Assembly (NCBI GenBank): GCA_963799485.1
Contig: CAWCXJ010000012.1
Coordinates: forward strand, 137,172 to 201,171
Source of the DNA: an uncultured Trueperaceae bacterium
GTDB lineage: Bacteria > Deinococcota > Deinococci > Deinococcales > Trueperaceae
Direction: 5' to 3'
Length of the DNA stretch: 64,000 nt
The position numbers were made by a program, and so were the translations under genes. The notes under the pieces are model-generated. The model had not been told where the DNA came from, made no database searches, and saw only the letters and a program-made list of their open reading frames with translations. Every line of letters starts with the position of its first letter. Position 1 is the first letter of the stretch. Shown here in pieces: positions 6,617 to 22,200 of this stretch.

Positions 6617-7973
6617 AGAACTCGTACTCCCCGAACTCGCCGAGTCGGTCGTCGAAGGTGAAATCGTCAAATGGCTCGTCGCCGAGGGCGAGCGCGTCGA
6701 GGAAGACCAACCGGTTGTCGAGGTCATGACCGATAAAGTCACCGTCGAACTGCCGAGCCCGTTTGCCGGAGTGCTGGAAACGCAGCTTGTCGCCGAGGGG
6801 GATGTGGTCGCGGTTCACGCGCCGATTGCCCGCTTTGCCGACGAAGCGGTCGGCGAACAAGCGGCGGGCGCAACCGAAACACCGTCACCGACAGCCGATT
6901 TGGTTCAAGTTGAAGCGGCAGACGACACAGAAGACGATACGGCTGAAGACACAGAAGGTACAGACGACGGCGACGCGCGCAGTTTGTTCCGGGCATCCAA
7001 AGATGACGACGCTGAACCGGTCTATCAGGTTTTACGGCAAGAAACAGCCCGTGAGCCTGAACGTACGGGGCCTTACGGTCGCCCGGTGGCGGTTCCGGCA
7101 GCGCGTAAACTCGCCCGTGAGTTGGGCGTAGAGCTGAGCGCCGTTTCCGGGAGTGGCCCGAACGGGCGTATCCGCGTAGACGACGTGCGGCGTGCTGCCG
7201 AGCAAGGTGAGACTCAAACGCCGACTACGCCCAAAGCGCCCGCGTACAAAACGCCTGCGGGCTACGAAGGTCGTGAGGAGCGCGTCCCCGTCCGGGGTTT
7301 ACGGCGCGCCATTTCAAACCAGATGGTCGCCTCGCACTTGCAGACCGTCCGGACACTGCATGTTGACGAAGTAGACGCTACCGAGTTGGTCGCGCTGCGA
7401 TCACGCCTCAAACCGCTTGCCGAAAAACGCGGGGTCAAGCTCTCGTATCTGCCGTTTATCATGAAGGCGACGGTGGCGGCGCTGAAAGCCTTTCCGGTGG
7501 TGAACTCGAGCCTCGACGAAGCCGCGAGTGAGGTCGTGCTCAAGCGGTTTTATAACCTGGGTTTAGCGGTCGCCACCGACGTCGGTCTAGTCGTGCCGGT
7601 CATCAAAGACGTCGATAAAAAGAGCGTGCTCGAGGTCGCCCAAGAGGTCGGTACACTCGCCGTAAAAGCGAGGGACGGCAAACTCGCGCCCGAAGACGTG
7701 AAGGGCGGCACCTTTAGCGTCACCAACATCGGCTCACTCGGCGGACTTTTCAGCTTTCCGATTATCAATGTTCCCGAAGCTGCCATTTTAGGCGTCCACA
7801 GCATCAAAAAACGTCCGGCGGTGATGCCGGACGATTCGGTTCAGGCGCGGCAGATGCTCTATCTGTCCCTGTCGTTCGACCACCGCATCATCGACGGGGC
7901 GGAGGCAGCGCAGTTTACGAGCTACTTGATCGAACTGCTCACGACGCCCGAAGCGCTCCTGCTAGAAAGCTGA
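6609..7973 (+). CDS. Dihydrolipoamide acyltransferase E2
   Basis: Lipoyl domain (EVMTDKVTVE), E3-binding domain (PAARKLARE...GSGPNGRI), catalytic DHRIIDG. Confidence 0.95.
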   Translation: MPRELVLPELAESVVEGEIVKWLVAEGERVEEDQPVVEVMTDKVTVELPSPFAGVLETQLVAEGDVVAVHAPIARFADEAVGEQAAGATETPSPTADLVQVEAADDTEDDTAEDTEGTDDGDARSLFRASKDDDAEPVYQVLRQETAREPERTGPYGRPVAVPAARKLARELGVELSAVSGSGPNGRIRVDDVRRAAEQGETQTPTTPKAPAYKTPAGYEGREERVPVRGLRRAISNQMVASHLQTVRTLHVDEVDATELVALRSRLKPLAEKRGVKLSYLPFIMKATVAALKAFPVVNSSLDEAASEVVLKRFYNLGLAVATDVGLVVPVIKDVDKKSVLEVAQEVGTLAVKARDGKLAPEDVKGGTFSVTNIGSLGGLFSFPIINVPEAAILGVHSIKKRPAVMPDDSVQARQMLYLSLSFDHRIIDGAEAAQFTSYLIELLTTPEALLLES

Positions 7974-8105
7974 GCTGCGTAGCCGGATGTTCCCGGTACT
8001 CCAGGCGGGCGGACGCACCAGCAGGGTGTCGATCAACCAAAACAGAGCATAACCAAGACGGAGCATAACCAAAGACAGAGAGGCGCGCCGCTGGGCCGCG
8101 CCCAG

Positions 8106-9383
8106 CTAAAAACTGGCAAACCCCCGCTCCCGCGCCCAGATCACCGCTTCAGTCCGGGAGTGCACCCCGAGCTTGTCGTAGAGGTTGGTAATGTAGTTGC
8201 GTACCGTTTGCTCGGCGAGCCCCAAGTCGGCGGCGATGGCGTCGTTGCTCCGGCCACTCGCGATATGCTCCAACACCTGCTTTTCACGTTTGGTCAGCGC
8301 GGCGACCTCCGCCGTATTAACGCGCTTGCCCGAACGTTTGGCCCGCGCCTGCGCAAGTTTTTCCATCAAGGAGCGGCTGAACCAGGCGGCGTCTTGCATC
8401 ACCTCGCCTATCGCCTGTGTCAGCTCTTCTTCGGACTGTTTGCGTTCGGTAATATCGAAAAACATCTGCAGCAAACAGGGTGCGCCGCCCATCTCGACGG
8501 TCTCGGCGGACGCCAGGATGTCGCGGACGCCGCCCGCTTTCGTCCGAAACTGGAGTTCCAGGTCGTGATAACCCTGAGCGTCCCGTAAGGCTGCCGCTAT
8601 TGCCCTTTGGTCTTCAGGTGAGGCCCACATCCCCAGGGTTCGGTTCGTCTGACCGACGGCTTCGGCAGCGGTGTAACCGGTCAGCTTTTCAAAGCTCAGG
8701 TTGACGTCGAGAAAGCGCCCCTCACCGAGGGTCGTCAGGCAGGTTGCCACCGGGCCGACGCGAAACGCCTGTTCAAACCGCCTTTCGCTGTTCAGCAGCT
8801 GCTCCTTGGCCTTTTCGTGTTCGGCAACTTCCGCTTGAAGTTGCGTGTTGGCGGTGCGAAGGTCCAGAGTCCTTTCGCCGACCCGCGTCTCGAGCTGTTC
8901 GTTTGCCGTGTCTTGTGCGAGGAGCAAGTCGCGTACCTGATACTGCCGTTTGCGGGCAGTTAGCGCCGCGCGCACGACCGTGATGAGCGTCGGGACGCGG
9001 AGGGGGCGCTCGAGCACCGTCGCGGCGCTCAAGTTCCCCAAACCGCCCAGCCCCGACCATGACGCGCCGACCAAGAGCACGAGCGGCAGGTCCGACCAGC
9101 CCGGTTGCGTTTCGGCGGCGCGCTTTACGGCGGCGAGCGTCGCCGCCGTAAGCGCCTCTTCGGTGAGTAGTAGCACCCCCACGCCCGCGCTCAGCTGCGC
9201 CGCGAGGTCGCCGCCGGAGACTGTATCAAAGGCCGCGCACGGCAGACCGGCTGCTGAGAGCGCCCGGCATAACAGCAGGGCGTCTCGTCCCAGCGGAGCC
9301 AAAACCAAAACGCGCTCCGCCGGACTCGTTACCGGCTCCGTTACAGAAGCGGTTCCGGGGCCGGTTGGCGGTTCAGTCGTCAT
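8106..9383 (-). CDS. Pseudo-receiver + coiled coil + PAS/PAC + LuxR-HTH transcriptional regulator
   Basis: N-terminal ERVLVLAPLGRDA...LLTEEAL...WSDLP domain; PAS (FLDVN..FEKLTGY...DITERK); LTKREKQVL...QTVRNY...KLGVHSR. Confidence 0.88.
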   Translation of the reverse strand: MTTEPPTGPGTASVTEPVTSPAERVLVLAPLGRDALLLCRALSAAGLPCAAFDTVSGGDLAAQLSAGVGVLLLTEEALTAATLAAVKRAAETQPGWSDLPLVLLVGASWSGLGGLGNLSAATVLERPLRVPTLITVVRAALTARKRQYQVRDLLLAQDTANEQLETRVGERTLDLRTANTQLQAEVAEHEKAKEQLLNSERRFEQAFRVGPVATCLTTLGEGRFLDVNLSFEKLTGYTAAEAVGQTNRTLGMWASPEDQRAIAAALRDAQGYHDLELQFRTKAGGVRDILASAETVEMGGAPCLLQMFFDITERKQSEEELTQAIGEVMQDAAWFSRSLMEKLAQARAKRSGKRVNTAEVAALTKREKQVLEHIASGRSNDAIAADLGLAEQTVRNYITNLYDKLGVHSRTEAVIWARERGFASF

Positions 9384-10887
9384 CTTGAGCGCGCCGCGTC
9401 AGCAAGTCTTCAGCGCGGCCCTGGTAGGTCGGCGTGCCCGTCAGGACGCCGCTAAACATGGTGATGGGGTCGCCGACCTGAATCCCGGCAGGGGTAATCC
9501 GCAGCTCCCGAATGGTATCTTCGTGCGGCCCGTAACGTTTTTTGATGACCGAAACCGCGAGCCGGAGGTGGCCTTCGGCCTCGAAGTGCCGCAACAGCAG
9601 CACCGTGTCGGCTAGGTAACTGATGTCTAGGGGCTCGAGTTCACCGCTCCCGAGCACGCCCCGTTCGGCCATAATCAAAAACGTCAGGACGCCCTTCCAG
9701 CTCAGGTAGGTGAGCAGCTCGTGAAGTTGCGCGACGAGCAGCGTTTCTTGCGGCATGGCGTTCAAGTAGCCCGTCAAGCTGTCGATGACCACCACCTTGG
9801 CCCCGCCTTTGCCCACGGCCTCCCGGACGATGTGCGCAAACTCGCCGGGTGACAGCTCCCCGGCGTCCACTTGTTGCAGCCGCACTGTGCCCGCCTCGAG
9901 CTGCGGCCTCAGGTCGAGCCCCATTCCCTGCGAGCGCACGTGAAAAGTTTCGGGGCGCTCGTCGAACAAAAACACCGCCGCGCGTTCGCCACGGGCAGCG
10001 GCGGTGTGGGCGTAAAGCGTGGCGAGCGAGCTTTTGCCGGTGCCGGTCGGGCCGACCAGCAAACAGGCGGTGCCGAACTCGAGGCCGCCCCCCAACAGGT
10101 GGTCGAGTTCGCCGACGCCGCTCTCGGCGACCGTCCGCTGCCTCGCGCCGTCGTCAGAAGACGCGGGCGTCTCGAGGCGCGGAAAAACCTCCAGCCCGCC
10201 CGTGCGGATACGAAAGCTGTGGTAGCCGCCGTGGTAGGTCATCCCGCGCCCCTTGTCGAGTTTGAGCCGCCGCCGCACGTCGCCGTAGTCGGGCGCGCGC
10301 TGCTCGAGCAGCAGCGCCCCGTGCGCCACGGTCGCGAGCTGCCGGTCGCCCTGCTCGACCGGTTCACCGGTTAAAAAGAGCGAGGTACACTCGAGGTCGC
10401 TTAAAACCTGCTTGAACATCAGGAGCTGCGAGCGGTAGCGCAGCGGGTTGTCGGTCAGCAGCCGAATCTGCTCGATGGGGTCAAAGACCAGGCGCTCGGG
10501 TTTGGTTCGGGTGATGACCGCCATAATCGCCTCGGTCGTCTCTTTAAGCTCGACCTCGGCGGTGTGAAAGACCGTCTGCTCGGCAGTGATGTAAAGGGCC
10601 GCTTCACCTGCTGAAAACTCGTGGACGGGCATCCCGCCAAGCGACCAGCCGTGCGACGCGGCAATCTCGCGGAGCTCCCGTTCGGTGTGCGACAGCGTGA
10701 TGTAAAGGACGCGCTCGCCGCGCCGTAAACCCTCCAGGAGAAACTGCAAGCCGAGGGTCGTCTTGCCGGTACCGGGCGTACCCTGAACCAGGTACAGCCA
10801 GCCGCGCGGCAAGCCGCCGTTCAGCACCGTGTCGAGCCCGGTCACGCCGGTCGCGGCTTTTTCCGGGCCCGTCTCCATCCGGTTCAT
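9373..10887 (-). CDS. KaiC-like double RecA-fold ATPase
   Basis: Two Walker A motifs (GTPGTGKT, GPTGTGKS), VVIDSL Walker B, DISYLAD, VIKKR; overlaps the downstream regulator. Confidence 0.92.
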   Translation of the reverse strand: MNRMETGPEKAATGVTGLDTVLNGGLPRGWLYLVQGTPGTGKTTLGLQFLLEGLRRGERVLYITLSHTERELREIAASHGWSLGGMPVHEFSAGEAALYITAEQTVFHTAEVELKETTEAIMAVITRTKPERLVFDPIEQIRLLTDNPLRYRSQLLMFKQVLSDLECTSLFLTGEPVEQGDRQLATVAHGALLLEQRAPDYGDVRRRLKLDKGRGMTYHGGYHSFRIRTGGLEVFPRLETPASSDDGARQRTVAESGVGELDHLLGGGLEFGTACLLVGPTGTGKSSLATLYAHTAAARGERAAVFLFDERPETFHVRSQGMGLDLRPQLEAGTVRLQQVDAGELSPGEFAHIVREAVGKGGAKVVVIDSLTGYLNAMPQETLLVAQLHELLTYLSWKGVLTFLIMAERGVLGSGELEPLDISYLADTVLLLRHFEAEGHLRLAVSVIKKRYGPHEDTIRELRITPAGIQVGDPITMFSGVLTGTPTYQGRAEDLLTRRAQDDD

Positions 10888-11052
10888 CAGGGTCGCCCGG
10901 GCCGAAGGCAGGTTGGTCGGCCCGGATCGGGTGACGTTCGTACTGCTTTTCTGGTGTTTTGGCGTCTAGTATCTAAGTAACTCATCTGTCGGTATGATAT
11001 ACCTAACCGTGTAATTCAAATTGTTATCTTCCCGCAAAGCTGAACCCGTGTC

Positions 11053-11120
11053 TAGGGGTTGAAACCCTTAGAGAACTGGTACTCGGGCCTCTGTAAGCGT
11101 CTTGGAAGGTTTGTTTTAAT
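11053..11120 (+). promoter_or_regulatory. Composite promoter copy 1 (palindrome + CTCTG + TGn -10) upstream of GGDEF gene
   Basis: TAGGGGTTGAAACCCTTA 11053-11070, CTCTG 11089-11093, TGtTTTAAT 11112-11120. Confidence 0.6.
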
Positions 11121-11216
11121 AACGCGGTAACACTCCGTTGGGGGCGGACCGGCAATAGACGACCTGCAAACGACCTGCAAACGACCTGCGCCTAGCGCCG
11201 CCGTCTGCAGTTTGTT

Positions 11217-12197
11217 TTGTCGGAGGCCCCGGCGAGCGCTCAACGTGTCAAGGCGCAGAGATTTAGGGAGGGTGTAACTATCAACCGAGCTGTTCTCGAG
11301 GCCACCCTCAACACCCTGAGCGAACCGCTGCTGGTTATCGGTTCCGACCGGCGGGTGACGTTTGTCAACGCGGCGTGGCGACGTTTGCGGGAGCAGCTAG
11401 GGGAACCGGACGGGGATAAGGCGTGGCTCGAGCCGGTTTACGGCACCGCTTACCAAGCCGGGTGCGGAAACCTGCTCAGTAACGAGGCAGCAAGGGGTGT
11501 CGAGGCTGTTCTGGGCGGAACTCTGCCCCGTTACGAGACTGTTTTTAAGTGCGCCGCCGGGTACGAAAGCCGTACCCTCAAACTCGAGGTGTTGCCGCTG
11601 GCACTAGGCTGCCCCGGCGCGCTGCTCAGCTACCATGACCTCACCGAACAGACGCGGCGTGAAACGGAAATCTACAACCTGGCGAACTTAGACCCGCTGA
11701 CCGGACTATTTAACCGGCGTTTGTTCTTCGCCGAGGCCGAACGGGTGCTGGCGCTTGCCGAGCGGCACGGGCACCCTTTTACGCTCCTCTACCTAGACCT
11801 CGACGGTTTCAAGGCGGTAAACGACTCGAGCGGTCATGAAGTCGGCGACGAGGTGCTCTGCAGGGTGGCGGCGAGGTTGGGCGGGTGCCTGCGTAAAAGC
11901 GACCTGTTGGCACGTCTGGGCGGTGACGAGTTTTTGCTGCTGTTGCCGGAAACGGATGAACGGGAGAGTTTGGTAACGGTCAAGCGCTGCTTGGAGAGCC
12001 TTACCCGACCTTTTACGGTTGACGGTCATACCATCACGCTTACGGGCAGTTTCGGGGTTGCCCACTATCCGACTCATGCCCGCACGATTGACGAACTGGT
12101 GCGGCTGGCGGATAAGGCTATGTACCAGGCCAAAGCGAACGGCGGCGGCGTCCGGGTCGTCCCTAGAGCGACTGTTCACCGCAGCGCTTACCACTAA
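11217..12197 (+). CDS. PAS-GGDEF diguanylate cyclase
   Basis: DPLTGLFNRR, DLDGFKAVND, RxxD I-site (RKSD), intact GGDEF, ADKAMY; start codon uncertain. Confidence 0.92.
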   Translation: MSEAPASAQRVKAQRFREGVTINRAVLEATLNTLSEPLLVIGSDRRVTFVNAAWRRLREQLGEPDGDKAWLEPVYGTAYQAGCGNLLSNEAARGVEAVLGGTLPRYETVFKCAAGYESRTLKLEVLPLALGCPGALLSYHDLTEQTRRETEIYNLANLDPLTGLFNRRLFFAEAERVLALAERHGHPFTLLYLDLDGFKAVNDSSGHEVGDEVLCRVAARLGGCLRKSDLLARLGGDEFLLLLPETDERESLVTVKRCLESLTRPFTVDGHTITLTGSFGVAHYPTHARTIDELVRLADKAMYQAKANGGGVRVVPRATVHRSAYH

Positions 12198-12219
12198 AGG
12201 AAAGACACGTTAGGCCGAA

Positions 12220-12287
12220 CCGGGGTTAAAACCCCTAACGTTTTAGTCTATGTACCTCTGGCTGCGGCGCAACCTTCTTGTTAGGGT
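12220..12287 (+). promoter_or_regulatory. Composite promoter copy 2 upstream of desaturase-like gene
   Basis: CCGGGGTTAAAACCCCTA 12220-12237, CTCTG 12256-12260, TGtTAGGGT 12279-12287. Confidence 0.6.
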
Positions 12288-12451
12288 TGTAGCTGTAGAC
12301 AGGTGTTTTATACGCTTTCCAACTGAGCTGTGCGCACGAAACCGTAAATGCCACCATAAATGTCACCGTTTCAAACAGTTTTAGTACCCGGCCTTGTCCG
12401 GTCGTAACGACCCAGCAGACCGCTACTTACTTTCAAGCAAAGGAGCCCTCC

Positions 12452-13537
12452 TTGTCGAGCCTGACCATCCCCCCCGCGAGCATCCTAGACGACCTCCGCA
12501 GCCGCACGCCCGCCGGTATGCTGAGCCGCCAGGAAAAAGACCGGCTGATCGAACGCGGCTTTTTGGGTCTTTACCGCTGGTACACCGCCCGCAGCCAGGA
12601 GACGCGCAACTGGAACCCGGACAAATCGTTCGCCTGGCGCAACCTGCGCAAAGACTTCTCCGAACCGCTGATGCAGATTTTGCAGGGCTTCTTTGCCGTC
12701 GAGTACTACACCCCCGACTACGTCGACGAAATCCTGAACCTGGTACGCCGCTCTCACGGGCGCAGCCACTTCCAGCTCCGCTGGGGTTCCGAAGAAGAAA
12801 AACACGCCGACACCTGGGAGAACTCGCTTTTGTTCTCGCAGCAGCGCACGCCCGGCTTTATCGAGTCGTATAAAGAAGACCTGCGCGCCAGCGTCCACCG
12901 CAGTTTATGGGAAGGCGACGCGCTGCGTAACCTCGTCTACACGGTGTTTCAAGAACGCGCCACCCAGCTCAACTACCTCAACCTGCTCAAGATCGCCAAC
13001 GGCAAGTCGGACAAACCGCAGCACCAGAACGACGCCGACCCGGTGCTAGCGCGTGTGGCCCAGACGATTGCCACCGACGAAGCCGCGCACTACAACTTCT
13101 TTCTAGAAGGCGTCAGACTTTTCTTGTACTACTACCCGCAGCGCACTTTAGAGGCCATCCAAGACGTGATCACGCACTTTACGATGCCGGCGAACAACAT
13201 CGTGCCGGATTGGGACAAGTTCAACTACGCGGTCTACAAAGCCGGGATTTACGGCCCCCGTGAATACGCCCGCGACGTGGTGCAGGTGGTGTTTCGCAAC
13301 CTGGGGATCGAGAGCCGGAAAAAGCTCGAGGAGGGCATCAAAAAAGGCCGCATCGTCCCGAGCAAAGCAGACGACGGCACGCAGCTGACCGCCATCTGGG
13401 ACTCGTTCGATTACGGGCTGGTCGAGGGCGACGTGCAGCGGATTTACGGCAAGATTACCAGGCACGAGCGTGACTTCGGGCGTTATGAGCTTGACCCCAC
13501 CGACTTTGTACCAAATCCCGAGTGGCCGGGGAAGTAA
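12452..13537 (+). CDS. Acyl-ACP desaturase-like ferritin-fold diiron protein
   Basis: Two ExxH motifs (WGSEEEKH, TDEAAH), QERAT, FTMP; AAGGAG RBS before TTG. Confidence 0.8.
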   Translation: MSSLTIPPASILDDLRSRTPAGMLSRQEKDRLIERGFLGLYRWYTARSQETRNWNPDKSFAWRNLRKDFSEPLMQILQGFFAVEYYTPDYVDEILNLVRRSHGRSHFQLRWGSEEEKHADTWENSLLFSQQRTPGFIESYKEDLRASVHRSLWEGDALRNLVYTVFQERATQLNYLNLLKIANGKSDKPQHQNDADPVLARVAQTIATDEAAHYNFFLEGVRLFLYYYPQRTLEAIQDVITHFTMPANNIVPDWDKFNYAVYKAGIYGPREYARDVVQVVFRNLGIESRKKLEEGIKKGRIVPSKADDGTQLTAIWDSFDYGLVEGDVQRIYGKITRHERDFGRYELDPTDFVPNPEWPGK

Positions 13538-13569
13538 CGCCTCCAAAGGCCTGCGTGTCAGATTACAGT

Positions 13570-13610
13570 AAAAAGGCCTGAACGTAGAGGGGGGGTAGTA
13601 CGTTCAGGCC
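13570..13610 (-). terminator. Intrinsic terminator, U-tract on minus strand (may act in both directions)
   Basis: 12-bp stem GGCCTGAACGTA/TACGTTCAGGCC preceded by AAAAA on the plus strand. Confidence 0.7.
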
Positions 13611-13712
13611 GCAAAACGTTCACGAAACCGTGGTACTTGCTCCCCCAGCAACCGTTTTTCGCAACTCTGCCCGTCGCCCCTGCGGTTGTTGGGCGCATCC
13701 CGGTTTCACCCA
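13570..13712 (-). ncRNA. Candidate structured small RNA
   Basis: Nested complementary segments forming a long rod, bounded by the shared promoter motif and a terminator; no family recognised. Confidence 0.35.
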
Positions 13713-13714
13713 TC

Positions 13715-13781
13715 ATTAAACAAAACGGTGTCGGGCTGGAACAGAGGTGGCTGTCAAATATATAAGGGGTTTTTACCCCGG
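13715..13781 (-). promoter_or_regulatory. Composite promoter copy 3 (minus strand)
   Basis: GGGGTTTTTACCCC 13766-13779; minus-strand CTCTG 13746-13742; TG-TTTAAT 13722-13715. Confidence 0.55.
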
Positions 13782-13868
13782 TTTTCTACCTTTACCGGAA
13801 CCGGCACATGGAGCCTGGTCGGGCCGGTTCGCTTCACCGTTTTACGGCGGGTGAACGCAAGCAACCTT

Positions 13869-14186
13869 TTACCCGACCCTCTCAGCCGAGCAAAAACACA
13901 TACGCCGCAACATCAGCAGATGGGCGTGCAGCACCTCTAACGCCGTCACGCTGAGGATGTTGGTTTCGTAGCAGGTGGCGAGGGTCTCGAGGTTCTCTCT
14001 TACCAGACCGTAGGCCCTACTGCTCGCGTGGTCGCGGTAGCCGGGTAGACGTGCGTAAAGTTCATCAATCGTTCTCTGAATCTCCTCGTGGTAGCCGCGC
14101 GCCGAGGTAAACTCCCAAGGCCGTTCAAAGTGCCCCTCGAGGCTGGGTTCTGGAAAACTGTCTGTAAGGCAATCTGTGTTACGCAC
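13869..14186 (-). CDS. Hypothetical helical protein
   Basis: ORF with GGAGG before an in-frame GTG at 14186; no family recognised. Confidence 0.4.
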   Translation of the reverse strand: MRNTDCLTDSFPEPSLEGHFERPWEFTSARGYHEEIQRTIDELYARLPGYRDHASSRAYGLVRENLETLATCYETNILSVTALEVLHAHLLMLRRMCFCSAERVG

Positions 14187-14229
14187 CGCCACCTCCACGC
14201 CTGTAATAGCCTGTTGCACCGAAGGGCAC

Positions 14230-14537
14230 TTAAAAGGTACTCCCCAAGTCGGTTTTGTCTTTATCCGCAGTTTCGGTTCGTTCGACCGCTATTTTTTCAC
14301 GCCTGAACGTGACCTGCGGTGCGTCCGTATGTTCCGAGCGCTGCGTCGTCACCCGCACCTCTGCGACGAGCATCAGCTGTTTGCCGACGACCGGCACCGC
14401 TTCGTAACGGAACACAATCACCGTGTCGCTCTCATAACGCTTTACGGCGTCTCTGCTAAAGCCGCTGCTGGTCAGCTCGCCAACCACCTGTCGGACGTAG
14501 CGAGACTGCCAAAAACACCGATTACACTGTTCATCAT
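14230..14537 (-). pseudogene. Frameshifted, internally deleted YsnF/AvaK (DUF2382)-type stress protein
   Basis: AAAGGAG RBS + MMNSVIGVFGSLATS, frame change near 14490 into QVVGELTSSGFSRDAV, then EAVPVVGKQLMLVAEVRVT...VTFRREKIAVER. Confidence 0.6.
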
Positions 14538-15274
14538 GGTTTTCTCCTTTGCGCTAATTACAGCTGCTTCAACCGCAAATTTGAAGAGGTTCTTACCCCT
14601 GCTCGCTAGGTGTTTGAACCCTACGGCTTGCGCTTTACGGCCTGAACCGGCTACTTTGAACCCGGTACTTTTGAACCCGGTACTTTTGAACCATCATCCA
14701 CTCGAGGTCACCGGCGCGAAGTTCTAGTGAGCTGATGGTCGCCTTCCGGGGTTTGTTTGCCGCGTCAGCGCCACATTACGGCAAAAACCGATGCGTTTAT
14801 TCCCGGCTATGCGCGCTGGACTGGAAGCTCATACAGAAAACTCACACAGACGGTTGTGCTTCTCCGAGTTTCGCACCCGTCAACCCGGCAATGACCGTTT
14901 GAGGGTTTGCAAGCTTGGCCTGTAAACATGCATAAATACCAGAAGTCGGTGTTTTAAGCCTAGTACTCCCACCCAGATACATCTGTTGTGTGCCGCTTGC
15001 GTCTGCTAGATTGCAACTGAAGCGTCGTGCTCGGCACACCGCAGCTCAACACACCGCAAAAGCAACTTCATAGAACACGACAAACAAGCACGACAAGCCG
15101 CGTAGCCGGATCGGCTTTTTAGAAAAGCACCGGATTTTGGGCTCGAGCGTCCTTCAGGCGCACATAACATTCAGGCGCACATAAGCTGTCGGCAACACGA
15201 GCAGGAGCCAAAGTTAGGAGTCGGGGTAGTTATGACGGATTGGCACGGCACACAAGCTGAACTCGGGGCGGTTC

Positions 15275-15925
15275 TTGACTGCTATTACCGACGGGCTTTT
15301 CGTGCTCGATAGCGACTGGCGTTTTACTTTCCTAAACGCACCGGCGGAGCAGTGGTGGCGCGCGCACGAGGAAAAACCGGGCCAAGCAAACCTCGCCGGC
15401 GCAAATGCCTGGGAGACATTCCCGGAAACCGTCGGTAGCGACCTCTACGAAGCTTGCCACCACGCGTCCCGGGCACAGACCCCCGGCAAGCTCGAGCTTT
15501 ACGCCGCGTCCCGCAAGCAGTGGCTTATGCTGCGCCTTTATCCGTTCCCTGACGGGCTTTGTGTTTATTTTGTGGACGTAAGTGACTACAAGCAGCTAGA
15601 ACACGAGCTGCTCGGGGCACTTCAAGAGATAGCTAGCGAAACCCTGTGGTTTAACCATTCACTCACCGATAAGCTGGCGCAAACTGCCGCCAAGACGCGC
15701 AGGGCCGCCGCAAAAGCCGCCGCGCCGCCGCTGACCCGGCGCGAAAAGCAGGTTTTAGAACATATCGCCAGAGGGCACGATGACCGCTACATCGCCGCCG
15801 CTCTGGGCCTTGTCGAGCAGACTGTGCGTAACTACATCACGCGTCTTTACGCAAAACTGGGGGTTCATTCACGCGCTGAAGCCGTCGTCTGGGCGCGTGA
15901 ACGCGGGCTTGGCAGAACCGAATAG
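15275..15925 (+). CDS. PAS + LuxR-HTH transcriptional regulator (5' end possibly frameshifted)
   Basis: AITDGLFVLDSDWRFTFLN PAS start; LTRREKQVL...KLGVHSRAEAVVWARERG; C-terminus paralogous to 8106..9383. Confidence 0.85.
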   Translation: MTAITDGLFVLDSDWRFTFLNAPAEQWWRAHEEKPGQANLAGANAWETFPETVGSDLYEACHHASRAQTPGKLELYAASRKQWLMLRLYPFPDGLCVYFVDVSDYKQLEHELLGALQEIASETLWFNHSLTDKLAQTAAKTRRAAAKAAAPPLTRREKQVLEHIARGHDDRYIAAALGLVEQTVRNYITRLYAKLGVHSRAEAVVWARERGLGRTE

Positions 15926-16055
15926 AGCAGCGAACCCTGTACAGGCGAATTACAGACTGCACCTCTACGTTCCCGACCACAATTTTTCGGTAAATATGTT
16001 TGACAAATAGTTGACAGCGCGCGCGAGTAGCCGGTGACGCACCCGTAATCCCTAT

Positions 16056-16123
16056 TAGGGGTAGCTACCCCTACGTAACCGGTCTTTACTTCTCTGGTGT
16101 GCCCTTTTAGAAATTGCTAACTT
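16056..16123 (+). promoter_or_regulatory. Composite promoter copy 4 with perfect 18-bp palindrome
   Basis: TAGGGGTAGCTACCCCTA 16056-16073, CTCTG 16092-16096, TGcTAACTT 16115-16123. Confidence 0.65.
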
Positions 16124-16345
16124 TGAAAGGCACGTTAACGGCTCGAGCTCGCTTTTTGTCTGAGAGTTACATGGGGTGGGAGTGGCTAAAATTAGATGTT
16201 TTGTAAGACGCAGCAAGGTTCAAAGCTTTGGGGCTTGCTAAGTTTCAAGGGTACAAGGTGACTCGAGTCTACCTTTTGTCTGGGGGTTACAGGGGGTAAC
16301 TGAGGCTGGATGTTTTGTAGGGAGCCGTACAGGTCTAAACGGTTA
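16114..16345. repeat. Degenerate tandem duplication, period about 121 bp
   Basis: Both units contain, in order, TTGCTAA, CTCGAG, TTTTGTCTG..GTTACA.GGGGT, GATGTTTTGTA. Confidence 0.7.
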
Positions 16346-16597
16346 GGTAACCAAAAGGAGAAATGTGCAGGCCGGTGAACACGCCTCGAGCTTTCAGTGG
16401 ACAGCCGTCGGCGCGAGCAGCGGTACCGACTACGAAAACTCGGGTTCGGAACCGACGACGGTCATCACGCAGTAATAGCGACAGCAACAACGACAGTAAG
16501 GCAACCGTAAAGCGCTAAACGAACTACCAAAACCGCTGGGCAGGTGAGCTCACCTGCCCAGCCGCAATCCCCACCTTTTCCAGCAAAGGAGCAGCAC

Positions 16598-17167
16598 ATG
16601 AATATCCGTAACGGGTGGCGCACCGCCGTCACCGACACTACCGGTAACACCTCACGACGTTTTCCTCGAGCCTTACGCAGTTATCTACTCGCCTTCGGCG
16701 CGCTTCTCCTTTTGACGACGGCCTGCAACAACCCGGCGCAAACCCAGGACCCGACGCTCAACGAAGAACTGACGGCGCTTCAGGCCCAGGTCGGCGACTT
16801 CGAGTCGCAAGTGACCGAACAGACCCAGGCGCTGCAAGACGCACGTGCGCGTGTCAACGAATTAGAGGCCCGGCTCGCCGAACAGCAGCAGCAGGTCGCA
16901 GAGGCCGAAACGGTGGTGCAGGAGCGTGACCAGTTCAGGCAACAACTTGCGGCGCGGCAGACTGCCTTGCAGAGAGCGCAGGCGCGGATTCGGAACCTGG
17001 AACAGCGGCGCGAGCTGACGCTCGAGGAGCGCTTAGCGTCGATCAACCAGCGGATCGATATTCTTCAGCAGGAGCGCGCCCAGCTCAATGGTCAGGCCGG
17101 GGGTCAGGCCGGGCCGGGAACGCAAGCTCCGGCAACGAACGAGGTTGGGGCCGACTCCACCCCGTAA
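16598..17167 (+). CDS. Coiled-coil lipoprotein
   Basis: AAGGAG RBS, lipobox-like LTTAC, Gln/Glu/Arg-rich heptads. Confidence 0.75.
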   Translation: MNIRNGWRTAVTDTTGNTSRRFPRALRSYLLAFGALLLLTTACNNPAQTQDPTLNEELTALQAQVGDFESQVTEQTQALQDARARVNELEARLAEQQQQVAEAETVVQERDQFRQQLAARQTALQRAQARIRNLEQRRELTLEERLASINQRIDILQQERAQLNGQAGGQAGPGTQAPATNEVGADSTP

Positions 17168-17281
17168 AGCTTATTGATTGAGCGCGCGGCGCACTTCGCC
17201 GCGCTTCAACCAACATTTTTTACGCGGCGCTTGTCAAACAACCGTTACAGGATATGGGCTACCCAGAGGAGAGCCTAGAAA

Positions 17282-17437
17282 ATGTCAACGACAACAGCAA
17301 ACCCAAAAGGCTCGAGCACCGCTACCGGACTGTCTGATGCTGTGAGTACAGGTCGTCAGGTCGCGGCTGAACTCGTCAACCGTGGCTTTGACTGGGGCGT
17401 GGTGACGCTCGGGCGCGAAGTGTTTACTGCGCTGTGA
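17282..17437 (+). pseudogene. Short ORF resembling a truncated general-stress protein N-terminus
   Basis: GAGGAG RBS; TATGLSDAVSTGRQVAAELVNRGFD parallels the remnant at 14230-14537. Confidence 0.35.
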
Positions 17438-18458
17438 CAGGCCGAACGTTACGCACGAGCAGCACCGCGTCGTTAAAGTCGTTGAGCCGGTTCGACTCGT
17501 CGGTAGCGAGGACAAACCCGCCGTCCCCCAGCGGATAGGCCCGGACGTGATGCGGCGAGGTATCGAAGGTATTGCGCGCGTCTTCGGTATAGACGGTGCG
17601 CTGCTCGAAAAAGCGGGTCGTCGGCCACACGGAATAAAAACCGAAAGGCTCAGCGGGCGGCGTAAAGCTCACGACCCCCGCTGCAACCTCTGTGGCTACG
17701 GGCGTAATGACGGGCTCGAGCCTTTGACCGTTAAGCGTCGGGAAGATGGGAAGGCTTAAAAGCGGTTGCAACGATTCGGCGTTACTCGCGCCGTAAAAAC
17801 CAAACTCGAATACCGGCGCGACGTCCGGAACGGCGAACGTGGCGAGCACCTGAACCGTAACCGGCTGTGCGGGGTCGGCGCGGACGAATGTTTGCGCGGA
17901 AACCTCGTCGCCCAGGGGATAATTTGCCGGTTCATCGACCAGCGGAGAGGTTGCGGGGTCTTGGTCGCCGGTTTGCAAGCCGAAACCGTAGGTGTCGAAA
18001 ATCCACTGCAGGGAAGGCTCGAGGGTCCCGTTCTGGCCCTGAACGTGGAGGCCGCCCAAAGCGACCTGCACCGTGTTACTACCGGCTGCGTTACCACCGG
18101 CTGCGTTACTGCCCGCAAGGTTGAGCAAAGCTTGTTGGGGGCCGAGATTACCTGCAACCGGCGTAAACGTCACGGTAAGCTCTCGGCTCTGACCGGCGCT
18201 GAGGCTAAAAGTTGACGTGCCTTGGAGCGCAAACTGCGCCGCATCTTCACCGGTCACGGTAGCTGAAACCTTGAGCACACCCGTCCCGGTATTTGTTACT
18301 TCTACGGTACGCGCGTCGTTTGAGATGTCGCCACCCGCGTTAAAAACCACTACGTCGCGGCTTGGCGTCAAACCTCCGGTTACAGTACCTCCCGGCACGC
18401 CACAACTCGCTAAAACTACGCCCAGCACGAGCGTTAAAGGTAAAGCTGGATATTTCAA
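17424..18458 (-). CDS. Lipoprotein with Ig-like (ASH/choice-of-anchor D-like) domain and C-terminal beta domain
   Basis: Lipobox LASC; VEVTNTGTGVL...LSAGQSRELTVTFTP; C-terminal DFNDAV. Confidence 0.75.
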   Translation of the reverse strand: MKYPALPLTLVLGVVLASCGVPGGTVTGGLTPSRDVVVFNAGGDISNDARTVEVTNTGTGVLKVSATVTGEDAAQFALQGTSTFSLSAGQSRELTVTFTPVAGNLGPQQALLNLAGSNAAGGNAAGSNTVQVALGGLHVQGQNGTLEPSLQWIFDTYGFGLQTGDQDPATSPLVDEPANYPLGDEVSAQTFVRADPAQPVTVQVLATFAVPDVAPVFEFGFYGASNAESLQPLLSLPIFPTLNGQRLEPVITPVATEVAAGVVSFTPPAEPFGFYSVWPTTRFFEQRTVYTEDARNTFDTSPHHVRAYPLGDGGFVLATDESNRLNDFNDAVLLVRNVRPVTAQ

Positions 18459-18633
18459 GGTAACCCACCCCTTTCAGAAGGCGACCTTAGCACAAGCGGA
18501 TGAGGGTGCCGCTGGGCAAATGCACCTGCACGTTGGCGAGTAGGTTGGCGCGGGCCGACCGTAAGCTGTAGCGGCGACGGCTCCGAAACCCCTAGCTCAC
18601 GCTTCTCCCGAAAAACACTTTAGAATATCTTTT

Positions 18634-18843
18634 ATGAGGCGTTATGCGTTACTACGACCTACCGAACTCGCACAGCTCGCAGAGCTCAGCGAACGGCACG
18701 AAGAGCTGATGCGGCGGCTCGAGACCGGCGAACCCGACCCGCTACTAGGGCCCCGCGACGTGCAGCTTGAAATCCGGCAGCTCCGCCAGGAGGCGCTTAA
18801 GGTGCTGAAAAGCGTGTCGCAAAATATCGAACAGCTCCCTTGA
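18634..18843 (+). CDS. Small hypothetical protein
   Basis: TAGAAT 7 nt before ATG (leaderless pattern); 9 nt gap to the next gene. Confidence 0.55.
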   Translation: MRRYALLRPTELAQLAELSERHEELMRRLETGEPDPLLGPRDVQLEIRQLRQEALKVLKSVSQNIEQLP

Positions 18844-18852
18844 GCCCTTGTT

Positions 18853-19764
18853 ATGAACCCTAGCGCCACCCTGATCCACAACGCGCACGCCGCCGGTCGA
18901 TTGCGTCTTTCGACCGCGCGCATCATCGAGCTTTTGGCGGAAGCCGGTTACGACGCCGAGCACATTCCGACCGAGAGTGAAGCCGAACTTGCTAACGTCC
19001 TTACGAACCCCGGCGAACTCGTCGTGGCAGCGGGCGGCGACGGCACGATTCGCGGCGTCGCGCTGGCTTTAGCTGCGTCAGGGTCAGCCGTCCCTTTAGC
19101 CCTCGCACCTTTAGGCACCGCTAACAATATCGCGCACACGCTGGGGCTGACCGACGTGACCGAAAACTTGTTGCGTGGCCTCGCTACCCCTTACGCGCGC
19201 CCCTTCGACCTCGGTCTGATTCGCGCGCCGTGGGGTCAGGCGCGGTTTCTCGAGGCGTTCGGGGTCGGCTTGTTCGCGCACGGCATGGAGAAATACAACC
19301 CAGGCGAGGGCAAAAGCCTCTTTCGGGCGGCACAAGCGGCGATTGAAACCCTGACGCAGTACGAGGCGCGCGAGTGGCAGCTCGAGCTCGACGGGCGCGA
19401 CCTCTCGGGCCGTTACCTGCTGCTCGAGGTGATGAACACCACGTCGATGGGGCTGCGCCTGCGCCTCGCACCTGACGCCGACCCGAGCGACGGTCTGTTC
19501 GACGTCGTGCGAGTGCGCGAAGACAAGCGGATCAGCTTCCAGACGTACTTCCGCAAACTTACGGCGGGTGACTTGGAGACCCTGCCCAACATCGACATCG
19601 TTCGGGGGCGGCGGCTCAAGCTTCTTTGGGACGGGCAGCCCCTGCACTTCGACGAAGAGGTGCGCGGCGACGACCCGGCGCGTGTTCCCGGTGGTGAAAT
19701 CGACATCGAGCTGCAGCCGGGCGCGCTCACGTTGTGGCTGCCCGAGCAGGCTCGAGCCCCGTAA
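18853..19764 (+). CDS. Diacylglycerol/lipid kinase family protein
   Basis: AAGGDGT, PLGTANNIA, DGLFDV motifs. Confidence 0.9.
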   Translation: MNPSATLIHNAHAAGRLRLSTARIIELLAEAGYDAEHIPTESEAELANVLTNPGELVVAAGGDGTIRGVALALAASGSAVPLALAPLGTANNIAHTLGLTDVTENLLRGLATPYARPFDLGLIRAPWGQARFLEAFGVGLFAHGMEKYNPGEGKSLFRAAQAAIETLTQYEAREWQLELDGRDLSGRYLLLEVMNTTSMGLRLRLAPDADPSDGLFDVVRVREDKRISFQTYFRKLTAGDLETLPNIDIVRGRRLKLLWDGQPLHFDEEVRGDDPARVPGGEIDIELQPGALTLWLPEQARAP

Positions 19765-19780
19765 ACGTACACTTAACTTT

Positions 19781-20482
19781 ATGAAAATCGACCTCCACCT
19801 CCACACCGAAGCTTCGTTCGATTGCGTGGTGCCGCTGCCGCAACTTTTACTGCAGGTCGGGCGCGCGGGTATCGATGTTCAGGCCGTGACCGACCACAAC
19901 GAAATCTGGGGCGCAGAAAAGCTTAGGGCGTTGGCCGCTGCGCGCCGTAAAACCCACCCTGAAACGCCGCAGATTATCGTCGGCGAAGAGGTCAGTACCC
20001 GCGAGGGCGAAATTATCGGGCTCTTTTTAACCGAGCGAATTCCCCGTGACCTGAGCCCCGAGGAAACAGTCGCCCGTATCCGGGCGCAGGGCGGGCTGGT
20101 GCTCTTGCCGCACGGCTTCGACCCGCTGAAAAAGAAACGGCTCAAACCCGAGGCTTTGGCGCGTATTGCCGGTGACGTCGATATCGTCGAGAGTTTTAAC
20201 GCGCGTATCTCGAGGCCGCGCTGGAACCGCGCCGGGGCTGTGTGGGCGGACGCGCGCGGCCTCCCGAAAAGCGGCGGCTCGGACGCGCACACCCTCGCCG
20301 ACGTAGGCGACGCCTGGACTGAAACGCCGCAACGCGACGTGAGCACGCCGGAGGGACTGCTCGAGGCGGTGCGCGCAGGTGAGGTGGCGGGCCGCTGGAC
20401 GCATCCGCTTCTAGCGTTTGGCTACAAGCTGTGGGATTCGGGCTTTGCCATTTCAAAGCGTTACGTTTCCGGCAGACGTTAG
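19781..20482 (+). CDS. PHP-domain metallophosphoesterase
   Basis: DLHLHT, VTDHN, GEEV, PH, GGSDAH. Confidence 0.9.
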   Translation: MKIDLHLHTEASFDCVVPLPQLLLQVGRAGIDVQAVTDHNEIWGAEKLRALAAARRKTHPETPQIIVGEEVSTREGEIIGLFLTERIPRDLSPEETVARIRAQGGLVLLPHGFDPLKKKRLKPEALARIAGDVDIVESFNARISRPRWNRAGAVWADARGLPKSGGSDAHTLADVGDAWTETPQRDVSTPEGLLEAVRAGEVAGRWTHPLLAFGYKLWDSGFAISKRYVSGRR

Positions 20483-20736
20483 GTTTAGGCTCCGCGTCCC
20501 CGAGTTTCGCGTCTAAAGCGCCGTAAAAGGCGCGCTCAGGTTGTATTACGGTATTTGGTCGATCACTGTAACCGTTGTGAAAACCCCAACTCGCACACGC
20601 GGCGTTCGCAACCTCTCGTATTACTTCCCATGTTACCGCCTATATCCTGTCCTGGACGACGCTTTTTCATATGTAGCTTTCATATGTGGCGTAGCCGGGT
20701 CGCTAGTCCCTGCGCTATACTCGCTCAAGGAGGGTT

Positions 20737-22200
20737 GTGTCCCATCTAGACGAGGCGCTCGAGCTGCTGCTGGCGCGCACCCACAGAGACCCCGAACTCG
20801 CTGCGGCGCTGCGAACCCTCTTGGAGGGTGTTTTGGCGCGTTTACCCGAGCCCGGGCCGGTCGCTGGGCCCGTACCCGAATCTGCGCCGGTCGCAGTAGC
20901 CCCCGCAGAACCGGCGTCTGCTCCTGAAGCCGAGTTAAACGGTGAGACAACCGGTGCGCTAACCGACGAGATAACCTTCGTCGAGTGGCCCGAGTTGGGA
21001 GCCGTAGGCAGAAATCTGCAGCTCAAGGCGGGTGCGTGCCGCTGGGTAGCGGCCTACGGCTACACCGAAGAACCCGCGGCCCTCGGCGAACGCTACGCGC
21101 TGCTCGACCACGCGAAAGCGGCAGGGTGTTTTTTGTGGATGTTTGACCGCGTCCGCGTCAATCCCTACAACACGGCCGGGCTCACCACCCTGGCTGAACT
21201 GTTCGAGTTGACGGCGCAGGCGCTGAACTTCTGGCGCGACGCCGGCGACACGCCCGAGGAGCGGGCAGCCGATCACCTCCTGGCGGACGCGCAGGCGGCG
21301 GTGCGCGCCGCTGCCTGGACGCTGGCCGGCTATAGCGACCCCGATCAGTACGACCTCTACAAAGCGCTAAAACTGAGCGCGCAAGCCTCGAGAACCTATT
21401 TGCCGCAGCTCAGTCTGGGCTACCGCCCCCCGGCGCTGGGCGAACTCACGGTGCGGCTGGCAGCGCTTGGCGAGGCCAGGCAAGCGCGCGAGGCGCGGGC
21501 GCGGGCAAGCAAAAAACTTTACGGCAAGGCGCACTATCACATCAAGCTGGTTGCTAAAAACCCGGCCGACATGGCCCAGTGGCGCAAGGTCGATGAGGCC
21601 GTGCGCGAGCTGCTGGCGCAGGGCGAAGCGGTCGCGGGTCTCCTCGAGCCGCTCCGGGGGCGCGCCGTACCCCCGGATTTGTCCCGGCTCGCCGCGCTGC
21701 TGAGGTTGCCTTTAGCCGCGCCGCCCGCACCCGTGGGGCAAACCTCGTTCGTCCCCGCCGCGCCGCAACTGCCGGAAAGCGCGAGCGAGGCGGTGAGGCG
21801 CGTCGGGCAGCTTTTGGCAGGGCGTGAAATCCTGATCGTCGGCGGCGACGAACGCAAAGAGGCGGTCGCGGGGCTTGCCGCGGCGTTCGGTTGCCGCGTG
21901 CGGTGGCTCGAGACCGCGCCGCACACCTCGCTGTCGCTGCTCGAGCCTGCCGTGACCGAAAGTGTCGCGGTCGTCTTGCTGCTGATCCGCTGGTCGAGCC
22001 ATGTTTACGGCGAACTCGCGCACGTCTGCAAGGCGCGGGGCGTGCCGCTGGTCAGGCTCGCGGGGGGCTATAACCCCAACCGGGTCGCGCACGACGTGCT
22101 GGGGCAAGCGGCGGCGCGGCTCAGCCCGGATAGTAGACCTGACAACAAACTTGACGACGCTGACGATACCGACGACAAAGCGCTCGAGCACACGGCCTGA
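20737..22200 (+). CDS. Uncharacterised protein with C-terminal DUF2325-like alpha/beta domain
   Basis: AAGGAGG RBS; ILIVGG...LLIRWSSH...VCKARGVP pattern. Confidence 0.7.
   Translation: MSHLDEALELLLARTHRDPELAAALRTLLEGVLARLPEPGPVAGPVPESAPVAVAPAEPASAPEAELNGETTGALTDEITFVEWPELGAVGRNLQLKAGACRWVAAYGYTEEPAALGERYALLDHAKAAGCFLWMFDRVRVNPYNTAGLTTLAELFELTAQALNFWRDAGDTPEERAADHLLADAQAAVRAAAWTLAGYSDPDQYDLYKALKLSAQASRTYLPQLSLGYRPPALGELTVRLAALGEARQAREARARASKKLYGKAHYHIKLVAKNPADMAQWRKVDEAVRELLAQGEAVAGLLEPLRGRAVPPDLSRLAALLRLPLAAPPAPVGQTSFVPAAPQLPESASEAVRRVGQLLAGREILIVGGDERKEAVAGLAAAFGCRVRWLETAPHTSLSLLEPAVTESVAVVLLLIRWSSHVYGELAHVCKARGVPLVRLAGGYNPNRVAHDVLGQAAARLSPDSRPDNKLDDADDTDDKALEHTA

Follow-up and report, generated by a model that had tools for sequence, protein, structure and literature searches.

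Two described systems come closest to the locus reported here. In the DosR/DevR regulon of Mycobacterium tuberculosis, the available portions of the published reports describe DevR promoters in which a strong and a weak box lie in tandem, at −42.5/−63.5 in tgs1 (PMC3177182), and a DevR helix that reads the box through K179, K182 and N183 (PMC13486717). In Pseudomonas, the accessible text of a preprint describes a KaiC that binds a neighbouring kinase, most likely via an N-terminal domain called PAS by its authors, and that aids stress resistance; the same text calls the mechanism of stand-alone KaiC largely unknown (bioRxiv 10.1101/2022.01.26.477890). Here we analysed a 64,000-nucleotide stretch of DNA, the window, which forms the end of contig C12 of an uncultured Trueperaceae genome (G000; other G numbers denote relatives, L fetched loci, C contigs of G000 and g genera). 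An island in this window contains four, and probably five, promoter-like stretches with two boxes each, beside the genes of a KaiC-like ATPase and a NarL-type regulator. We propose that these tandem GGGGT-N4-ACCCC stretches are activator-dependent promoters read by the kaiC-coupled regulator, whose activity the KaiC-like ATPase would set, and from the sequence comparisons described below we give this reading a probability of roughly 0.7.

The likeness to the DosR/DevR system includes an 18-bp palindrome with G-rich and C-rich halves and a 4-bp spacer, the combination of strong and weak tandem boxes with one of them predicted at −42.5, and the pattern of the recognition helix, where K179/K182/N183 align by eye with Q/R/N of the protein studied here. 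The half-site, however, is GGGGT instead of GGGAC and the boxes are spaced by 23 instead of 21 bp. The regulator also differs, having a receiver-like domain, a coiled coil and a PAS domain but no canonical phospho-receiver, and it is accompanied by a KaiC-like ATPase in place of a sensor kinase. With the stand-alone KaiC–histidine kinase modules of Pseudomonas putida/protegens, as far as the available text describes them, the locus shares a double-domain KaiC that has no KaiA/B beside it and is encoded in one operon with a signalling protein, the Pseudomonas module being linked to stress resistance. The partner here, in contrast, has a DNA-binding output, so that a phosphorelay would be unneeded, and its binding site and regulon are predictable. 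PAS/LOV-type activators with a helix-turn-helix (HTH), namely EL222, VqmA and the PAS-LuxR proteins of Streptomyces, likewise join PAS to a LuxR-type HTH and are the top structural matches, but the identity is 16–21%, and the receiver-like domain, the 78-residue helix and the kaiC coupling are extra features of the present protein. The promoter design is ordinary NarL/DosR-type logic; the unusual part is the KaiC-coupled one-component regulator. No published description of such a system in Trueperaceae or Deinococcus was found in a search that subscription papers largely lay outside.

Palindrome cores of the form GGGGT-N4-ACCCY are present at 11055 (GGGGTTGAAACCCT), 12222, 13766 and 16058, all between identified genes, as stated in a first-pass annotation of this DNA. 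The distances given there were also reproduced: CTCTG follows 19, 19, 18 and 19 nt from the end of the 18-mer (starting at position 35 from the first G, or 34 for the minus-strand site), and the hexamers TTTAAT, TAGGGT, TTTAAT and TAACTT start at positions 61, 61, 60 and 61, which is 53.5, 53.5, 52.5 and 53.5 nt from the palindrome centre. Copy S1 (plus strand, between kaiC and a GGDEF gene) consists of a distal box GGGGT-TGAA-ACCCT (11055–11068) at about −65.5, a degenerate proximal box ending CCTCTG (11078–11093) at about −42.5, and the −10-like TTTAAT (11115–11120), with a predicted start near 11127. S2 (plus strand) has GGGGT-TAAA-ACCCC (12222–12235), the proximal box AGTCT-ATGT-ACCTC-TG (12245–12260) and TAGGGT (12282–12287), predicting a start near 12294. 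S3 (minus strand) has GGGGT-AAAA-ACCCC (13766–13779), a proximal element ending ACCTCTG (13742–13757) at a spacing 1 nt shorter than that of the remaining copies, and TTTAAT (13715–13720), with a start expected near 13708. S4 (plus strand) combines GGGGT-AGCT-ACCCC (16058–16071), GGTCT-TTAC-TTCTC-TG (16081–16096) and TAACTT (16118–16123), and its start would be near 16130. A fifth, weaker copy, S5 (minus strand, 14622), had been overlooked. Its distal box is degenerate (AGGGT-TCAA-ACACC, 14609–14622), its proximal box is near-perfect (GGGGT-AAGA-ACCTC-TT, 14584–14599; box score 14.3 at exactly +23), and its −10-like TGTAAT (14557–14562) has the same offset as in the other copies, placing the predicted start near 14550, just 5′ of the ribosome site of a DUF2382 gene remnant.

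Genome-wide, GGGGT-N4-ACCCY occurs at 12 distinct loci, four of which fall inside 5.1 kb. Such clustering arose in 4 of 200,000 random placements, a figure to be read with the motif having been picked after the fact. CTCTG stands at offset 34/35 in 4/4 clustered boxes vs 0/8 of the other genomic boxes. The perfect palindrome is no commoner in the genome than versions with other spacers (7 with N4, 8 with N6, 8 with N9); the signal therefore lies in the clustering together with the composite layout.

We considered whether the boxes could be decayed copies of a dispersed palindrome, AACAAGGGGTTGCAACCCCTTGTT, with no regulatory role. We call it REP-like by analogy. This 24-mer shares the core AGGGGT-N4-ACCCCT, has 20 copies in G008 and 17 in G021, and has look-alikes in G000 on C6 and C8. 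It is, however, an invariant, dispersed 24-bp unit that as a type has no second box or −10: among 30 copies (60 orientations), the second element was seen in one and a correctly placed −10 in one. The island boxes, for their part, have variable centres and no AACA/TGTT arms, and both G008 and G021 are without the composite. The geometry of the dispersed copies thus largely refutes this explanation, which we regard as highly improbable. The dispersed palindrome, a perfect one, is found at L085–L114 (G008, with variants in G021), its look-alikes in G000 lie at C6:251677 and C8:302483, and G017 has six copies of a TTTAAA-centred form.

It had been suggested that CTCTG may belong to a weaker second site about 23 nt downstream, and the comparisons bear this out. 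S5 and nine matches from the genera g11, g28 and g39 contain a near-perfect second box. Eight relatives (G015, G047, G118, G119, G120, G121, G122 and G125) have a promoter class with a strong second box, GGGGT-N4-GCCTCTG, behind a weak first box. In 17 non-redundant relatives' sites with a strong first box, G24, G25, G33 and C34 are conserved in 12, 14, 15 and 12 cases, respectively, at positions that were not used for selection. From these three lines we read CTCTG as the right-hand part of another box of this type, 23 bp downstream. The 23-bp spacing is present in 25 sites, either box can be the strong one, and the unit expected to be bound is an inverted repeat of ∼18 bp. When only the four boxes were used, the offset profile peaked weakly at +23 (mean −11.6, the best outside the main box and its ±1 shoulders), and a proximal-only pattern was noisy, matching in 15 of 128 genomes against 10 with control matches, while 7 of its 16 matches resembled background. 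TCT[AG] at −37 was also tried as a general promoter element and dropped, since only 6 of 275 leaderless-type promoters carry it.

If the hexamer at 61–66 is the −10 element, the box centres would lie at −65.5 and −42.5. No sigma-70 −35/−10 pair was found in 10800–17500. In Deinococcus deserti, the available part of the study reports a −10 motif before 94% of starts and no detectable general −35 (PMC4007540), so that promoters with only a −10 would be normal in the phylum. The canonical TAnnnT is present at S2 and S4 only; the hexamers of S1 and S3 have no −11 A. The proposal of a conserved extended −10 did not survive: at 10 of the 17 sites from relatives, C occupies the position two bases upstream of the hexamer. 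In S3 the TG directly abuts the hexamer, leaving no TGn. As the predicted −35 region would lie partly under the proximal box and the spacing on the kaiC side is not fixed, the boxes could instead be repressor operators or architectural sites. This we judge very unlikely: the phase to the −10 is fixed across genera, no sigma-70 −35/−10 match accompanies it, and no box covers the −10 or the start, all of which fits activation better.

Next, we scanned the genome and its relatives, as the first-pass annotation had suggested. The composite was present in 12 of 128 Trueperaceae genomes, and the reversed control matched in a single one of the 128. A kaiC gene followed by a receiver-like-PAS-LuxR gene was found in 12 genomes (G000, G015, G047, G118–G123, G125, G132 and G133), of which 10 have the composite or its strong-proximal form. 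None of the 10 genomes in which this receiver-like N-terminal domain occurs with no LuxR match nearby has the composite (the fusion partners read in these, with G089 left out, are GGDEF or kinase). The 116 genomes without the pair gave three matches to the composite pattern. In G124 both matches directly adjoin the 5′ ends of kaiC genes truncated at contig ends, in G003 the match adjoins a homologue of a 102-aa regulon gene near the contig start, and that in G061 has no linked gene and is probably chance. At the level of loci, the 13 kaiC–regulator loci (218 kb) yielded 25 sites and the 43 control loci (782 kb) only two, both poor. Around intact DUF2382 operons and other PAS-LuxR paralogues, the composite gave only weak, mostly intragenic-looking scores. 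A matrix built from the 17 relatives' sites ranked S2, S4 and S1 first to third and S5 sixth among 7,307,690 positions of G000; it revealed no comparable site elsewhere in this genome, and the regulon therefore appears to be local.

A first strict pattern matched in 1 of 40 relatives, at a site before leuS in G003, which was treated as chance. An alignment-profile search at E 1e-70 gave paralogues, with distant carriers missed, and the carrier census rests on a replacement search. A metagenome scan returned 80 loci, whose best four (L167–L170) were examined, and a scan of genome contigs for further kaiC-linked orthologues returned 30 loci, none of them such an orthologue by match range.

The two genes at the head of the island are both on the minus strand. 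The KaiC-like ATPase (9373–10887, 504 aa) is a double-domain protein with two PF06745 stretches; the Walker A G/K residues are invariant in both halves among 14 homologues, and it scores under the cut-offs of the circadian KaiC models (226 < 408 and 129 < 546 bits). Neither kaiA nor kaiB was identified near it. In relatives L117, L118, L119, L120 and L017 kaiC looks leaderless, with TAnnAT 6–7 nt before the ATG; in G000 a TATCAT lies >100 nt before the start. The start of the regulator gene overlaps the kaiC stop (9373–9383), and this gene order recurs in 11 other genomes and in L167. The regulator (8106–9383, 425 aa) has Pfam GerE and PAS matches, a NarL-type HTH (PF00196, E 5e-21; NarL, DosR and VraR chains are among the PDB matches) and the recognition helix EQTVRNYIT. 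Its predicted structure comprises an N-terminal (beta-alpha)5 domain of modest confidence, a 78-residue helix (130–207), PAS and the HTH. Canonical receivers have acidic residues after beta-1 and beta-3; this domain has A29-P30 and T74-E75-E76 there, and thus neither the acidic pocket nor the phospho-accepting Asp. No Response_reg match was obtained with Pfam; a feature search returned, besides unnamed clusters, one for Response_reg at 0.90, which serves as a lead only. No sensor histidine kinase was found among the 13 open reading frames scanned in 8106–22200.

Over 138 aa, the N-terminal domain shares 41% identity with the N-terminal domain of a histidine kinase, P0118. We propose that it may be a KaiC-docking module with three interchangeable outputs. 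In several genera kaiC stands with the same receiver-like domain fused to GGDEF, and in G054 with one fused to a histidine kinase beside a frameshifted kaiC (L126–L135, L313), which gives the KaiC output a modular look.

The first-pass annotation had assigned the boxes, as activator sites near −65, to one or both of the local NarL/LuxR-type proteins. The comparative data support a local reader of this type at that position but favour the kaiC-coupled 425-aa protein over the involvement of both, as motif-bearing relatives have only this one near the motif. The second PAS-LuxR gene (15233–15925, plus strand) encodes the same recognition helix without a receiver-like domain and has a frame break after ∼16 codons. 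All kaiC-linked regulators share EQTVRNY[IV]T and form one, weakly supported, clade (81/74), and four genomes (G119, G120, G121 and G125) have exactly one member of the subfamily, the kaiC-linked one. As the motif tracks the kaiC–LuxR pair and these four carriers have only this member, the kaiC-coupled protein (8106–9383), and not the frameshifted second LuxR, is likely to be the activator.

The same promoters could nevertheless have the second PAS-LuxR (15275–15925) or another QTVRNY paralogue as main or joint reader in this genome. The second protein lies inside the island, belongs to the same clade and has an identical recognition helix, a TTG start at 15275 could yield a 216-aa product, and a paralogue on C7 has TQTVRNY. 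Yet the natural-looking ATG and the first 16 codons are 1 nt out of frame, the branch is long (1.26) within the EQTVRNY clade, no motif-bearing relative has a further LuxR in the locus, four of them lacking any other subfamily member, and genomes rich in other paralogues have no composite. We therefore consider such a reader unlikely. One-component LuxR regulators with several PAS domains, whose EVMxDxxWFS linker is conserved while their recognition helices vary, have expanded throughout the Trueperaceae (in G000 at C5:79928, C7:11271 and C13:394602, and in many relatives).

A factor of another kind, for example the Crp/Fnr-type protein of some related loci, might also read the boxes, the link to kaiC then being inherited gene order only. 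A Crp-like gene is present in 6 of 19 loci searched, the proximal box would be centred at −42.5, and the 5-4-5 spacing together with a site near −42 resembles FNR sites. The gene is missing, however, from the kaiC loci of G047, G121 and G125 and from the present island, its counterpart elsewhere in G000 (62%, on C7) has no composite nearby, and where it does occur near the motif it is itself downstream of a composite site. Its helix, STRETVSK, is of the CRP type, which reads GTGA. Taken together, this makes a Crp-like reader quite unlikely.

Several observations weigh against a kaiC-coupled regulator acting at these promoters. The −10 hexamers of S1, S3 and S5 are non-canonical, and S3 ranks only 8845 in the rigid relatives-trained model because of its 1-nt shift. 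The patterns were tuned after some relatives had been viewed, and the training sites were chosen by window-derived rules. As 7 of the 10 positive genomes belong to one genus, g39, the independent lineages number only four (g1, g11, g28 and g39). In the separate subclade of G132 and G133 the pair is present, but all that accompanies it is a diverged look-alike with about the usual spacing. No box lies in the 4 kb upstream of kaiC in L167, the closest orthologue among the loci compared (64%/75%), whose downstream side is cut off, and the boxes of L168 have no second element. Several paralogues share QTVRNY, yet no composite lies nearby. On the kaiC side, box and −10 are separated by distances ranging from 58 to 70, and hence we make no claim of direct kaiC autoregulation. 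Finally, the receiver fold rests on topology and the 0.90 feature match, since the listed structural matches (EL222, VqmA, YtvA and FixL) cover PAS/HTH only.

In the mechanism that we propose for the kaiC-coupled regulator, KaiC would bind the receiver-like N-terminal domain, which has no canonical acidic residues. The regulator would dimerise via its coiled coil and occupy the strong box first; the weak one would follow cooperatively, the two boxes being centred near −65.5 and −42.5. The proximal dimer, overlapping the −35 region, would recruit sigma-A polymerase to promoters having only a −10 element. The output would be a small, mostly local stress-type regulon, consisting of the diguanylate cyclase, a fatty-acid desaturase and YsnF-like genes, and in relatives of lmo0937-family, DAGK-like and Crp-like genes. 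More tentatively, and at somewhat less than even odds, a non-clock KaiC ATPase may directly gate the activator via an exchangeable docking domain, which in other genomes of the family is joined to a kinase or a diguanylate cyclase.

The island around the boxes runs from kaiC and the PAS-LuxR gene through PAS-GGDEF, desaturase-like and DUF2382 remnant genes to the second PAS-LuxR gene and a lipoprotein-like frame. It appears patchy, as kaiC was not found in any of the five same-genus genomes searched. The diguanylate cyclase (PAS-GGDEF by Pfam; 11217–12197, plus strand) is the predicted target of S1, and its assignment in the first-pass annotation gained support because composite sites also precede GGDEF genes in relatives, among them G047 and G120. 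Its start codon is uncertain: a good ribosome site lies at ∼11267 within 11217–11300, yet no in-frame ATG, GTG or TTG follows, and the start may be non-canonical or damaged. Other sites in relatives precede a gene for a 48-aa lmo0937/DUF5670 protein with a 73-aa gene, DAGK-like and 102-aa genes, and a unit of 73-aa, Crp-like and membrane desaturase genes. YsnF-like proteins are general-stress proteins. A stress role is suggested because lmo0937-family and YsnF-like genes are among the targets. In Listeria, two reports describe reduced lmo0937, one in sigB mutants (PMC7690807) and the other when sigma-B is inhibited (PMC3225968).

The acyl-ACP-desaturase-like gene behind S2 (12438–13537, plus strand; PF03405) is of a different family from the membrane desaturase of the relatives. 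Between its ribosome site and stop (12438–13535) it is 99.45% identical over 1098 nt to the native gene at C9:47232–46135. No box was found upstream of the native gene or its 13 orthologues (14 of 14 scored; best score 5.6 vs 23.7). The duplication could be an assembly artefact. G001 contains a 52-codon remnant of a second desaturase copy.

The unit behind S5 is a deleted and frameshifted version of an operon that is intact in G001 and G005. It comprises, on the minus strand, a broken YsnF/AvaK-like gene (14230–14538, PF09557), in which the start of one operon gene runs, out of frame, into the end of the gene that follows it, and a small conserved gene of ∼100–116 aa (13869–14219) with homologues in three of five same-genus genomes, in two of them after DUF2382 genes. 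The island in G000 is likely to be partly decayed and partly rewired, the native desaturase having been duplicated behind S2. Elsewhere, up to three YsnF/AvaK-like DUF2382 genes stand in tandem in operons that also contain small unknown genes and are divergent from a GNTVRNY-type PAS-LuxR gene (L281:6830–10298, L282:8904–13400 and L025:5862–8664).

The short transcript predicted from S3 (13611–13708, minus strand; ∼135 nt with its terminator) had been put forward as a small RNA. A terminator-like hairpin with a 12-bp stem and T5 (13570–13610, minus strand) would end transcripts from S3 and possibly from S5, and the fold z-score including the terminator is −2.5. There were no Rfam matches in 7900–19000 and no match to this DNA in five same-genus genomes. 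A small RNA is doubtful, and the transcript may be a leftover leader. In G003, the composite site (L257:364–525) is followed by a ∼85-nt RNA with an 11-bp hairpin and U-tract (z −3.1). On the other side, a coiled-coil lipoprotein-like open reading frame (16544–17167, plus strand) is a possible S4 target; it begins ∼470 nt downstream, behind a hairpin (16535–16562), and the link is uncertain. The intergenic DNA of the island has short exact tandem duplications at 11160–11191 (ACGACCTGCAA, three copies), 14651–14692 (TTTGAACCCGGTACT, two to three copies) and 15153–15185 (TTCAGGCGCACATAA, two copies). DAGK/YegS-like, PHP and 487-aa unknown genes follow the island (18853–22200). No composite site was found before this DAGK/YegS-like copy, though DAGK-like genes are composite-site targets in relatives.

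If the proposed system holds, it would be the shortest known route from the nucleotide or phosphorylation state of a KaiC hexamer to transcription, with a defined operator, and the stress regulon would have twice recruited unrelated fatty-acid desaturases, in G000 by a precise gene duplication behind an existing promoter. The locus would be a minimal read-out of two genes and a 66-bp promoter, from which a reporter could show the state of KaiC, including any timing behaviour. For the Trueperaceae, a little-studied bacterial family, it offers a predicted operator for a subfamily of PAS-LuxR regulators.

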